DNA from: an uncultured Rhodospirillaceae bacterium
Lineage (GTDB): Bacteria; Pseudomonadota; Alphaproteobacteria; GCA-2731375
Length of the DNA: 64,000 nt
Direction of reading: 5' to 3'
Assembly (NCBI GenBank): GCA_964590195.1
Contig: CAZPWJ010000001.1
Location: forward strand, 175,882 to 239,881
The notes under the pieces were generated by a model. The model ran no database searches and was not told the DNA's origin. It worked only from the letters and a program-made list of their open reading frames with translations. Below are positions 46,945 to 50,632 of the stretch, one piece after another (the first letter of the stretch is position 1; every line of letters starts with the position of its first letter). The translations under genes and the position numbers were made by a program.

Positions 46945-47069
46945 ACCTTTTTCGATATTCATCGAAGGGCCGGGCCGCCCGCTCCCCCTCCCGGCCACCC
47001 ACGGGACTATGCTCATTGGGTGGCCGGGAGGGGGAGCGGGCGGATAAGCCAATTCCGAAAAAGGTCTAG
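46941..47069. repeat. CTAG-bounded palindromic (MITE-like) element; may also act as a bidirectional terminator
   Basis: Perfect 14-bp terminal IR (46941-46954/47056-47069) and perfect 27-bp inner IR (46975-47001/47017-47043). Confidence 0.85.
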
Positions 47070-48976
47070 GGCGTCTCCGCCACCGGCAGATAAATCGTGA
47101 CCGTGGTGCCTTGGCCAACCTGGCTGCTAATGGTGACGCCGCCCTGGGATTGCTCGGCGAAACCGAACACCATGCTGAGGCCCAGGCCGCTGCCTTTGCC
47201 AATGTCCTTGGTGGTGTAGAAAGGCTCGAAAACCCGCCCCAAGGTATCAGCGGGAATGCCGATGCCGTCATCGATGACCGACAGGGCAACATAAGCGCCC
47301 GGCGCAAGTTCGGGCAGGTCAGCTATTTGTCTTTGTGCTATTTCGCAATTCATCGCCGCGATTTTCAGGCTGCCGCCTTCGGGCATGGCGTCGCGGGCAT
47401 TGATCATCAGATTCAACAAGGCATTTTCAAGCTGTGCCGCATCGACCATCGCGGGCCACAGGCCGGTGGCGGCAGTTGTTTCGATACTGATCGAGGGGTC
47501 GACCAGCCGCTCGGCCAGATCCTTGATGTCGTGTATCGCCTGAACGACATCGGTGACACCGGGAGAAACCGTCTGCTGCCGGGAGAATGACAACAACCGG
47601 TCGGTCAATTCGGCACCCCGATTGGTGGCCCGCATGGCAACATCCAGCATTTCCTTGGCCGGCCCGTCCAGATCGGGATTGAGGTTTAGCAGTTCCAGGC
47701 TGCCCAGAATGGCGGTCAGAAGATTGTTGAAATCATGGGCCACCCCGCCGGTCAACAGGCCGACCGCTTCGAGTCGTTGATGTTGCCTGAGCTTTTCGTC
47801 CTGCAATTTTCGCTCGGTGATGTCGCGAAGCACGACGGTCATTTCCAGATTATCGGTAAAATGCAGCTTGGAGATAGAGGCTTCCGCCGGGAACTCGCTG
47901 CCGTCACGGCGAAGGCCGGTAATTTCTCCACGCTCGCGCATCAGGCGCTGCTCGTCGGAAGAGGTCAGGAAACCGTCAATATGGCCGCCATGGCTGGGCC
48001 GGAACCTTTCGGGTATCAGGGTTTCCACATGCGCGCCGATGATTTCGTCGCAGCGATAGCCAAAAATCTGCTCGGCGCTGCGATTGAACATGGTGATGGT
48101 CATATCGCTGTTGACGAAGATGATGGCCTCGTGGGCGTTTACAACCAAGCTGTTGAGGCGGTCTTCGGTATGGCGCCGCGCCTCTTCCGCCGCCACCCTT
48201 TCGGTAATGTCCTGCACAACGCCGATTATGCGGCTGCCCCCGTCGTCCTTGTGACGCTCTATTTCCGCTGTCTCAAGCACCACACGCAGCATGCCGTCGG
48301 GGCGAATGATACGGTGGGTCACCTGGTACCGCTCGCCAGACCGCTGCACCGCGTCAAATACTTCATTGAGCGCGCTCAGGTCGTCCGGATGAATAAAGCT
48401 GCGAAATTCCGCCGTCGTGACGCCGTTTTGATCCGCATCAAGGCCGAATATGGCGGCGGTCTGAGCCGACCAACTGATCCAATCGGTATCCAGGTCTCTT
48501 TCCCAACTGCCGATATTTCCCAAGCGCTGCGCCCGGGCTAAATTAGACTCCCTGAGCGCCAGGGACTTAAGCGCCTGACGGTCTTCGGTAACATCCTCCA
48601 TCAGGGCAAAAAAGCCGATGACGTCGCCATTCCGCAAACGATGGGGAATGTATTGTATTTGCAGGATGTAGCCGCCATCGGCGGATTGGTAATCAAGCTC
48701 GAAATTGGCGCTCTCACCGGCCAGGGCCGCGGCGATCCAGGGCGCGACCCGTTGATAAATTTCAGGCTGCAGGATGTCCCGCACTTTTGCCCCAATGAAT
48801 GCCGAGCGTGGTTTGGAGAAGCGGGCCTCGAATGCCTGGTTAACGAATTGGTAGCGCTCGTCCCGGTCGATATAGGCGATCAAGGCGGGCAAATTGTCCG
48901 TGACCAGACGCAGCCCTTCCGCATCAAACAGCGCGCTGGCTGGTCTCGGCATATTGGGCGGCGTCTCGGAATCCAT
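47066..48976 (-). CDS. Soluble triple-PAS sensor histidine kinase
   Basis: Three PAS domains, H-box VAHDFNNLL, NARDA, DDGIGI, FEPFYTTK, GSGLGL; no receiver domain. Confidence 0.93.
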   Translation of the reverse strand: MDSETPPNMPRPASALFDAEGLRLVTDNLPALIAYIDRDERYQFVNQAFEARFSKPRSAFIGAKVRDILQPEIYQRVAPWIAAALAGESANFELDYQSADGGYILQIQYIPHRLRNGDVIGFFALMEDVTEDRQALKSLALRESNLARAQRLGNIGSWERDLDTDWISWSAQTAAIFGLDADQNGVTTAEFRSFIHPDDLSALNEVFDAVQRSGERYQVTHRIIRPDGMLRVVLETAEIERHKDDGGSRIIGVVQDITERVAAEEARRHTEDRLNSLVVNAHEAIIFVNSDMTITMFNRSAEQIFGYRCDEIIGAHVETLIPERFRPSHGGHIDGFLTSSDEQRLMRERGEITGLRRDGSEFPAEASISKLHFTDNLEMTVVLRDITERKLQDEKLRQHQRLEAVGLLTGGVAHDFNNLLTAILGSLELLNLNPDLDGPAKEMLDVAMRATNRGAELTDRLLSFSRQQTVSPGVTDVVQAIHDIKDLAERLVDPSISIETTAATGLWPAMVDAAQLENALLNLMINARDAMPEGGSLKIAAMNCEIAQRQIADLPELAPGAYVALSVIDDGIGIPADTLGRVFEPFYTTKDIGKGSGLGLSMVFGFAEQSQGGVTISSQVGQGTTVTIYLPVAETP

Positions 48977-49096: not shown

Positions 49097-49486
49097 ATGA
49101 ATACAGCGGCCGCAAATTCACAAATTCGAATCCTGGTCATTGATGATGACGAATTGGTTAGGAAAACGATCGTCATGACCCTGCGATCCGCCGATTACGA
49201 GGTTGCCGAGGCGAGCGATGGTGTCCTTGGCTTGAAAGCGGCGGCCCAGGCGCCATTTGATCTGGTCATTACGGATATTTTGATGCCGAACAAGGAAGGC
49301 ATTGAAACCATGCGGGAATTGCGCCTGCAAGAAAGCGGTTTGAAGATTATTGCCATTTCAGGCGGTGACCGCAGGGGCGGCAGCTTCCTCGAAATGGCCA
49401 GGAAGCTGGGCGCCGATAAAACACTCAGCAAACCGTTTCGCCCGCAAGAGCTGCTCGCCGATGTGGCGGAGGTTCTGGCCCAATAG
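49097..49486 (+). CDS. Single-domain response regulator
   Basis: ILVIDDD, TDILMP, AISGG, KPF; divergent from the kinase. Confidence 0.92.
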   Translation: MNTAAANSQIRILVIDDDELVRKTIVMTLRSADYEVAEASDGVLGLKAAAQAPFDLVITDILMPNKEGIETMRELRLQESGLKIIAISGGDRRGGSFLEMARKLGADKTLSKPFRPQELLADVAEVLAQ

Positions 49487-49594
49487 AAGGCCTGTTCCCA
49501 TTATAATCCGTCACGGCGCCCGCATAGTCGGCGCCTTTCAACTCAGCGCCTCTAATCTATTGCCGATACGGGCTGGTTCGTTCAGTCTAGGATA

Positions 49595-49854
49595 ATACCA
49601 AGTTGCGGTGATAAAAACTCATATAGATCGTTTCAAGAGCCCCTCGGGTAGGAGTGGAAGCGCCGACGGTACCAGTACCTTCAAGCTTTCACGACGCCGC
49701 CGAGGGGCTCCTGAAACGACCGAATTCGGCGCTTTAGGAAGGCTTTCGGCGGTGTCGCGCGCCGCTTGTGGTACTGGTACCACAGCGCAATGCGCTCCTA
49801 CCCGAAAGCCTTCCTAAAGCGTCTATTTGGGTCTTTATCACCGCAACTTGGTAT
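49595..49854. mobile_element. 260-bp nested palindromic non-coding element (MITE-like or structured RNA/ssDNA)
   Basis: Perfect 21-bp terminal IR (49595-49615/49834-49854) enclosing two inverted 92-nt hairpin units (49628-49719, 49730-49821) and a central CCGAATTCGG palindrome; the symmetry is seen directly, mobility is inferred. Confidence 0.7.
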
Positions 49855-49882
49855 AACATTCAAAACGGGGAGAAATGGGGCT

Positions 49883-50632
49883 ATGCGGGAATTCGAAACA
49901 GAGATCGGGACGGCTGATGGCAATATGGACGTCTTCGTCTGCCATCCGGAACAGGACGGACCGCACCCGGCGGTCATTGTCTATATGGATGCCCCGGGGA
50001 TGCGCGAGGAATTGCGCGATATGGCGCGCCGGATCGCCACGGTCGGCTACACGGTGGTGCTGCCGAACATGTACTACCGCACGGGGCGCGAGGGGCATTA
50101 CGGCTATGATCTGTCGCGCATCCGGGAGGACGATGGTGAACGGGCCAAGATGTTCGACGTCATGAACACCTTGACCAATGCCAGGGTGGTGGATGACACC
50201 AAGGGCCTATTGGCCTTCATCGATCAGTGCGATGCCGCCAGCCCCGGCGTTGTGGGCTGTGTCGGCTATTGCATGAGCGGGCAGTTCGTGATGTCCGTGG
50301 GCGCGGCCTATCCAGATCGTTTCGATGCCATTGCCTCCTACCATGGGGTCAAGATCATAACGGATCAACCCGATTCACCCCATCTGACCGCCGATAAGAT
50401 TCGGGGCGAGGTTTATCTGGGCTTTGCCTCCGATGATCCGTTCGTACCGGAAGAGGAACTGGCCGCCATGCCCGGTGCCATGCAGGCGGCCGGGATCAAG
50501 CATACCATCGAAATCTATCCCGAGACCGAACATGGCTTTGTCTTTGCCGAGCGGCCGGTCTACAAGAAACCGGCGTCGGAGCGTCATTGGGAAACCATGC
50601 TGGCCCTGTTTAACCGCCGTCTGCGCGCCTGA
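49883..50632 (+). CDS. Dienelactone hydrolase family protein
   Basis: YMDAPGMR, GYCMSG nucleophile, HGF. Confidence 0.92.
   Translation: MREFETEIGTADGNMDVFVCHPEQDGPHPAVIVYMDAPGMREELRDMARRIATVGYTVVLPNMYYRTGREGHYGYDLSRIREDDGERAKMFDVMNTLTNARVVDDTKGLLAFIDQCDAASPGVVGCVGYCMSGQFVMSVGAAYPDRFDAIASYHGVKIITDQPDSPHLTADKIRGEVYLGFASDDPFVPEEELAAMPGAMQAAGIKHTIEIYPETEHGFVFAERPVYKKPASERHWETMLALFNRRLRA

Follow-up and report, generated by a model that had tools for sequence, protein, structure and literature searches.

Background

MITEs, non-autonomous transposons bounded by terminal inverted repeats, are generally identified by their ends; what lies between these drifts. IS630-type elements duplicate TA at the target, and the IS5 family with its IS1031 group, as well as the PIF/Harbinger-Tourist elements, produces a 3-bp TNA/TWA target duplication.

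Several small palindromic repeats are the closest described systems. In an excerpt of Delihas (2011; PMC3184786), bcr1 of the Bacillus cereus group appears as a mobile non-coding repeat with direct-repeat flanks, reported to be transcribed, in which compensatory changes keep a cruciform-like structure. ERIC, or MITEEc1, is listed together with IS630 in ISfinder (excerpt of PMC11602168), and RNase III acts at Correia elements as RNase E does at ERIC (excerpt of PMC10969869). According to the portion of Di Nocera et al. (2013; PMC3733652) used here, REPs measure 20-40 bp, and CGTC-tagged REPs predominate in Alphaproteobacteria, where a known transposase for them is lacking.

Here we analyse a palindromic locus in an uncultured Rhodospirillaceae bacterium (assembly GCA_964590195.1, contig CAZPWJ010000001.1, positions 175,882 to 239,881). 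This whole stretch of 64,000 nucleotides is referred to below as the window, and positions given without a contig are window positions. The locus resembles bcr1 as that repeat is portrayed in the same excerpt (PMC3184786), being small, mobile, non-coding and marked by compensatory base changes. With ERIC/MITEEc1 and Correia/NEMIS, so far as the excerpted sources describe them, it shares the form of an intergenic palindrome bounded by terminal inverted repeats; theirs fold as RNA and affect mRNA processing. Like REPs and REPINs in the cited portion of PMC3733652, it contains an inverted pair of hairpins with an unpaired GTAG tag, an arrangement that in REPs is sometimes embedded in longer palindromes. 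A literature search, whose reach ended short of supplementary MITE catalogues, found no description of the element. An original prediction, made from the letters of the window, had proposed a non-autonomous mobile element or structured RNA or single-stranded DNA whose conserved loops are read by an enzyme acting in trans, by analogy with REPINs and attC sites.

Results and discussion

Anatomy of the element and its neighbours

The element spans 258 bp (49596-49853) and consists of termini of about 32 bp, two inverted modules of about 92 nt and a central mini-palindrome. Its left terminal inverted repeat (49596-49627, + strand), beginning TACCAAG, pairs with the right one (49822-49853, - strand), ending CTTGGTA; both are delimited by helix 1 of the predicted fold and by the alignment of copies. 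The sequence 49595-49615 is, as originally reported, the exact reverse complement of 49834-49854, with imperfect pairing to about 33 bp, and a repeat finder traces the repeat (I1) along 60-nt arms of 78% complementarity, the outer 21 nt of which are exact. The boundaries first drawn, 49595-49854, are nevertheless one nucleotide too wide on either side. The suspected TAA flanks, left (49593-49595) and right (49854-49856), are identical and represent a true 3-bp target-site duplication, and the outermost A and T are left out of the element because both belong to the duplicated TAA.

Module A (49628-49719) has its sense on the + strand, where it scores 86.4 bits with our module covariance model (R1) and shows outer-stem compensation. 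It is built of a 20-bp outer stem, an internal loop of GTAGGAG and CGACGCC, an inner stem and an apical GGTAC-CA-GTACC hairpin. Module B (49730-49821) is homologous to it with sense on the - strand (R1 71 bits at about 49729-49821), which bears out the homology of the two cores in opposite orientation. Their stems are likewise as first described: that of A (49628-49647/49700-49719; I3) is 20 nt long at 95% with 52 nt between its arms, and that of B (49730-49749/49802-49821, inside repeat I2) is perfect. The apical GGTACCAGTACC is common to A and B in inverted form (I4; 12 nt, 100%). Between the modules lies the mini-palindrome CCGAATTCGG (49720-49729), corresponding to helix 6 (3 pairs, 96.7% of cells paired). 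Minimum free energies (MFE) of the window copy are -160.9 kcal/mol on the + strand and -165.6 on the - strand, vs about -83 for shuffled sequences (z = -16.4 and -16.7, respectively; none of 200 shuffles was as good).

The flanking genes lie outside the element. Upstream is a response-regulator receiver protein (49097-49486, +; Pfam PF00072, E 1.5e-24), and downstream a member of the dienelactone hydrolase family (49883-50632, +; PF01738, E 1.8e-46), whose ATG at 49883 falls 27 nt past the right TAA. A PAS-rich histidine kinase gene (47066-48976, -) is divergently oriented upstream of the response-regulator gene.

Copies, target sites and mobility

The genome of the window (G000; 224 contigs) holds two full-length copies of the window's family plus remnants: a second full copy on contig C118 has 93% identity, and a degenerate copy (C78) and solo ends are also present. 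BLAST located the family in 18 of the 20 congeneric genomes besides G000 and in the one genome of a second genus, and in none of 11 other genomes of the family or of 28 other families sampled. Judging by counts of the exact end motif, a congener genome may have as many as about 49 copies, and 133 of 147 end-pair matches are 240-279 bp long. Many copies sit at contig ends, the metagenome-derived contigs breaking inside the element.

When 23 and then 82 copies were aligned, similarity ended exactly at TACCA...TGGTA. Identical 3-bp flanks were found in 68 of 89 unique copies (TTA 35, TAA 28, TCA 4, TGA 1), with C at -4 in 47/89 and G at +4 in 48/89. The target is (C)TWA(G), of which the central 3 bp are duplicated; it is often a TAA stop codon, which is thereby regenerated.

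Comparison with the closest relative (G019), whose flanks are about 95% identical, provides evidence of movement: none of nine copies examined is common to both genomes. Three of the nine correspond to exact empty sites with a single triplet (the C118 copy of G000, TAA; the G019 copies L082, TGA, and L083, TTA) and two to near-exact ones with the expected triplet and 1-2 changes in the duplicated copies (L081, L079). In L080 and L023 the length of the empty site is consistent and the triplet different, and the remaining two, L042 and the window's own site, are complex. At the window's site AGGA-TAA-CATTC would be expected in G019, which instead has AGGA-CCAAT-ATTC, an empty allele also found in a contig from an independent metagenome run. 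The element has moved since the divergence of G000 and its sister species G019. The element thus displays the small size, terminal inverted repeats, target duplication with insertion polymorphism and multiple dispersed copies of a MITE. Far from being a single copy that lacks homologues and covariation, the feature is multi-copy with exact boundaries, a 3-bp duplication and empty sites in a sister genome, so that its original designation as a non-autonomous mobile element holds.

Some empty sites are aberrant in their own right. Across the nine filled/empty comparisons, four show a triplet or neighbouring positions that differ beyond the approximately 5% divergence of the flanks: G019:C1 near 15057 (window copy) and G000 C42:12519, C21:52481 and C14:44057. 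Examples are CCAAT for TAA+C, ATC for TTA and CCA for TCA/TGA. Excision footprints or local hypermutability are possible causes.

Shorter derivatives were also observed. Mini-versions of 54-55 bp, composed of the two termini only, occur in G000 (C49:2302-2355 and C101:25-78) and at L138:2996-3050; they retain TAA or TTA flanks and may be either deletion derivatives or minimal mobile units. At C10:24417-24460 of G000, a solo terminus of about 45 nt abuts a sequence that by eye resembles a tRNA 3' end.

Gene context

Copies are dispersed singly between ordinary genes, and their orientation relative to these is random (++ 16, +- 14, -- 12, -+ 11; 72 copies). In 27 of 73 copies a flanking coding frame terminates at the duplicated triplet. 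Of the non-disruptive TWA sites in 1.39 Mb of G000, 9% are stop codons, as are 29% of the CTWAG sites; since the CTWAG preference alone predicts 29% vs the 37% observed, target preference together with selection explains the association, and we reject stop-codon targeting as a special mechanism. By the calls of a crude gene finder, the next start codon follows many copies, the window's included, at a distance of no more than about 30 nt, which makes co-transcription with neighbouring genes likely as judged from gene spacing. The same kind of gene calling on the first 12 contigs of G000 (1.39 Mb) gave TAG 478, TGA 381 and TAA 312 among 1171 stop codons; the high share of TAG is unusual and is possibly an artefact of the crude gene finder.

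A branched fold with compensatory changes

The fold was evaluated on an alignment of 82 unique full-length copies, whose identity to the window copy ranges from 100% down to 63%. RNAalifold predicted 91 pairs, of which 56 show double (compensatory) changes, vs 39.3 +/- 2.4 in shuffled alignments (0 of 500 shuffles reached 56). Paired cells amount to 96.6% of 7450, vs 83.7% after column shuffling and 38-47% when partner columns were slid by 1-3 positions. Compensation affects 14 of 17 outer-stem pairs in module A and 10 of 15 in module B, and is seen in the inner stems of module A as well. The terminal stem (helix 1) behaves similarly: 19 of its 30 pairs have changes on both sides and 97.6% of its cells are paired, positions 7-14 of the termini vary between copies and stay complementary within each copy, and one column pair occurs as GC 33, CG 29, AU 10 and UA 3. 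Because the copies are related by descent, the shuffle controls overstate the significance of these figures; the slid controls and the occurrence of several pair types per column are independent of descent and argue that the signal is real. The branched fold, including the pairing of the two termini, is thus kept by compensatory substitutions.

A second proposal, that one strand could switch between the branched fold and a rod in which the two cores pair, fared less well. The rod is indeed the predicted MFE structure of the minus strand of the window copy, and it is the MFE in 41 of 160 strand folds over the copies, vs 119 of 160 that are branched. Across copies, the outer arms of A and B could pair as a rod in 36-59% of cells, vs 94-96% for the branched stems. 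The switch is accordingly rejected as a conserved feature.

Strand-specific modules

Module A on the + strand and module B on the - strand share one consensus, and their predicted stability depends on the strand: alifold energies are -53.2 for A+ vs -34.3 for A-, and -49.3 for B- vs -31.7 for B+. The wobble preference first noticed in the window copy (+ for A, - for B) extends to the whole family. Inner stems of module A contain 162 G.T vs 19 A.C cells, and those of module B contain 228 A.C cells (in plus-strand letters, equal to G.U on the minus strand) vs 11 G.T, while wobble in the terminal stem is symmetric (48 vs 38). R1 scores the sense strands at 46-99 bits and the antisense at about 24 bits. 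Each DNA strand therefore presents one sense module, in its 5' half. Some of the asymmetry goes back to the shared ancestor of A and B; that it has persisted over 35% divergence still indicates constraint.

A superfamily with the same core and different ends

Profile and covariance searches uncovered three further elements in G000 that are single-copy, 264-272 bp long and of the same plan with unrelated termini (C20:52755-53026, C23:49827-50094 and C63:14624-14891), along with a solo module (C23:52075-52166). The termini of the three begin TACCTCC, TGGTTTGC and TGTCCTG, respectively, and their flanks are TTAA or CTAG. Of the 33 genomes of the order, 26 have modules according to R1, with up to 122 matches per genome; by genus, these are 18/20 in g1, 1/1 in g2, 1/2 in g3, 3/3 in g4, 2/2 in g8 and 0/4 in g5-g7. 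Among 150 genomes that represent other families of Alphaproteobacteria, 10 have modules as well, with E-values down to 7e-17. In most genomes with matches they form a plus/minus pair 7-10 nt apart, and in the examples examined the paired modules lie inside 260-272-bp elements with diverse termini. A scan with an exact pattern returned contigs of MAGs labelled Alphaproteobacteria, Rhodospirillaceae or Rhodospirillales; two exact-pattern matches in other phyla have no extended similarity and were discarded as chance.

Between families the outer and inner stems pair without being constrained in sequence, and the conserved parts are AGGAG, CAAG, CGACGCC and an apical GCGATG-loop-CATCG hairpin; the apical hairpin varies by subfamily, with GGTAC-CA-GTACC in one and CGATG...CATCG in others. 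These comparisons place the element in a wider superfamily of 260-272-bp alphaproteobacterial elements that is defined by architecture and not by end sequence. Its plan is a terminal stem of roughly 30 bp and free sequence around two inverted hairpin modules of about 94 nt, each with unpaired conserved motifs ((G)TAGGAG 5' and CGACGCC 3') plus an apical hairpin. That the fold, and not the end sequences, is conserved across many marine and other alphaproteobacteria suggests that the fold itself matters.

Two sister families duplicate TA within YTAR (9 of 11 copies in G158, 7 of 8 in G027), which, next to the 3-bp duplication in the window's family, means that the same core is associated with at least two insertion chemistries. 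The superfamily is apparently undescribed, no account of it having come up in the literature searches. No Rfam 15 family reaches its gathering threshold (the best score, 23.3 bits vs a threshold of 120, belongs to a plant miRNA model), an Rfam search of eight loci from other element families gave nothing on the elements, and queries from four element families had no match in a plasmid collection. A match to a described MITE or Rfam family, which according to the original prediction would have removed its novelty, did not turn up in these searches.

Search for the mobilising enzyme

The window's genome has no profile matches to PF01609, PF13340, PF13358 or PF13359. PF13359 is missing from all 21 genomes of the genus, and PF01609 is found in 13 of the 21, the element carriers G019, G007 and G013 not being among them. 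None of 10 transposase (DDE_Tnp_1) loci carries the element's terminal repeat. No autonomous parent emerged when G000 and about 256 loci, mostly from fragmented MAGs, were scanned for pairs of ends, and end-motif scans for longer copies in G027, G031 and G023 were negative; only short copies are present in G027, with 8 paired copies, and in G023, with 4, both of them near-complete genomes. IS630-type loci of G178, G158 and G023 were likewise negative as a source of the ends, and no IS630-type genes were found in G000, G141 (one contig) or G027. No enzyme gene recurs beside copies among the neighbour clusters identified, the only multi-locus one identified being that which contains the window's response-regulator ORF.

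Three candidate parents were considered and set aside. The DDE_Tnp_1 locus L266 has only 7 nt in common with the element and unlike flanks, and was judged a chance match. An end pair 8.7 kb apart on C19 has 3 mismatches and unlike flanks, at about chance level. L259 (G010:C24, locus 1428-2399) is a two-ORF insertion sequence of the IS1031/IS427 type with a TTA duplication, and shows that enzymes making such a duplication exist in the genus; its ends, GAGTCCGTCCCGAAAG, are unrelated to TACCAAG....

Within the same family, the IS630-type DDE_3 domain is matched 63 times in G023 (genus g4), and about 30 of these matches score identically, which indicates a recent IS630-family expansion in this genome. 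In G000, a Y1 HUH transposase-like gene (C51:14766-15458; PF01797) has self-complementary GGGGACAC hairpins on both flanks; these are unrelated to the element studied here, and the arrangement fits the 'TIRtron/TIRYT' type as characterised in the cited portion of Di Nocera et al. (2013; PMC3733652).

Interpretation

On balance, and with moderate confidence, we favour the interpretation that the window feature represents a copy of a non-autonomous transposon with terminal inverted repeats (MITE) that is mobilised in trans and whose modules act single-stranded. The 3-bp TNA duplication points to an IS5-superfamily-type DDE transposase, encoded outside the element, that would catalyse its movement. 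The modules would most likely act as RNA, within read-through transcripts of the tightly packed flanking genes, and their inverted pairing would make the element functional whichever way round it is inserted, for example as a cassette for processing, stabilisation or protein binding. Against this interpretation stand the failure to find a transposase with the element's ends, the presence of short copies only in the near-complete genomes, the lack of a promoter-like site in or next to the element, and the four of nine empty sites that deviate, the window's own among them. Of the original prediction, mobility, strand-specific modules and a conserved fold are supported; no enzyme that would read the loops was found at the loci searched.

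A broader reading, which we regard as tentative and rather doubtful, places the unit of selection in the structured module of about 94 nt itself. A class-wide superfamily would then propagate an inverted pair of modules inside unrelated shells, using both TA and TNA chemistries, and the module would be a nucleic-acid motif new to Rfam, with one sense copy on either strand. If true, it would be an orientation-independent RNA cassette spread through operons, or the substrate of a structure-reading mobilisation enzyme.

It is unlikely that the element is a REPIN-like single-stranded DNA element, in which GTAG-tagged hairpins are read by a Y1 HUH transposase of the RAYT/TIRYT type that mobilises the doublet. 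Each module does have a conserved unpaired GTAG 5' of its stem, within a nearly invariant GTAGGAG, and the modules form an inverted dimer, each strand-specific; furthermore, 26 of the order's 33 genomes, G000 (C51) among them, contain Y1 (Y1_Tnp) genes. The window's family nonetheless makes a 3-bp duplication, and to our knowledge HUH Y1 enzymes, REPINs and attC sites make none, a point on which the earlier REPIN, attC and HUH analogies fail. An attC site would moreover be expected to have R and L boxes, extrahelical bases and an adjacent integron integrase and cassette array, and the present copies lie singly between ordinary genes. Gene neighbourhoods weigh in the same direction: no module was detected at E<=0.7 at any of 12 Y1 loci (that of G000 not among them), the G000 gene has its own GGGGACAC hairpins, and G019, G007 and G006 bear modules without a Y1 match, these three being incomplete MAGs. 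REP dimers inside long palindromes have been reported, and REPs are 20-40 bp in size vs about 94 nt for the modules (both from the cited portion of PMC3733652).

We also consider it improbable that the element is an ordinary MITE in which pairing is a by-product, its arms having been homogenised in hairpins or cruciforms by intra-element template switching or gene conversion and the fold being functionless. Such a process would account for two termini that covary though about 200 bp apart, and for apical hairpins of A and B that have changed in concert between GGTAC-CA-GTACC and CGATG...CATCG. It is difficult to reconcile with two fixed positions that are mainly G.U (64/82 and 49/82 copies), alternating with A-U, because mismatch correction would remove such pairs. 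Neither does it predict loop motifs conserved over class-level distances while the stems are free, nor outer stems of A and B that have escaped homogenisation with each other, as the low rod pairing (36-59%) reveals.

Lower still in our estimation is a double-stranded reading, in which the two inverted cores are subterminal binding sites of a dimeric transposase or host DNA-binding protein. The inverted symmetry of the whole element and the position of the conserved blocks next to the termini agree with it; the compensatory changes in 14/17 and 10/15 outer-stem pairs and the G.T vs A.C asymmetry are left unaccounted for, and the same core accompanies unrelated termini and duplications of 2 bp as well as 3 bp. 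Finally, it is highly improbable that the modules are independent small-RNA genes, each driven by a promoter of its own in the neighbouring terminus, since strand specificity and a position just inside a terminus are set against the lack of any sigma-70-like promoter or terminator-like site in or beside the element, the lack of an Rfam match, and copies that are mobile and polymorphic between close species.

Conclusions: comparison with known systems

The MITE interpretation preferred here reverses the usual pattern of such elements, in that the ends vary while remaining complementary within each copy and the double-hairpin core is kept from genus to class level. It provides a defined, testable RNA or single-stranded DNA motif that covaries strongly and of which hundreds of variants exist in nature, and raises the concrete question of what reads the module. 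The elements interrupt MAG assemblies, many contigs ending where they lie, and their insertions fall precisely on stop codons or some 30 nt before start codons. They are therefore relevant to how genomes of abundant uncultured marine bacteria are assembled and annotated, and to the expression of operons in these bacteria.

With respect to insertion sequences, the window's family has a duplication like that of the IS5 family/IS1031 group and of PIF/Harbinger-Tourist elements (3-bp TNA/TWA), and the sister families in G158 and G027 resemble IS630-type elements in duplicating TA, in YTAR. A derivative of the IS5/IS1031 group would share the TNA duplication; its matching ends and cognate transposase were not found in G000. 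An IS630-type MITE of the ERIC/MITEEc1 kind would duplicate TA, whereas the element makes a 3-bp duplication and has a TGA site with an exact empty site. The element further differs from ERIC/MITEEc1 and Correia in being twice as long and branched as opposed to a single hairpin.

Membership of the REP/REPIN-RAYT system is suggested by the GTAG tag and the inverted doublet; however, the terminal inverted repeats with their duplication, the unit size of about 94 nt and the absence of modules flanking any of the 12 Y1 loci speak against it. By comparison with bcr1, which was made by description only, the element has two inverted modules with conserved loops, a 3-bp TWA duplication and family-variable terminal repeats, whereas bcr1 is about 155 bp long, has 5-bp direct repeats and belongs to Firmicutes (excerpt of PMC3184786). 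Overall, the element is set apart from bcr1, ERIC/Correia and REPs by its size, its two-module branched plan, its loop motifs and its pattern of a conserved core with free ends.
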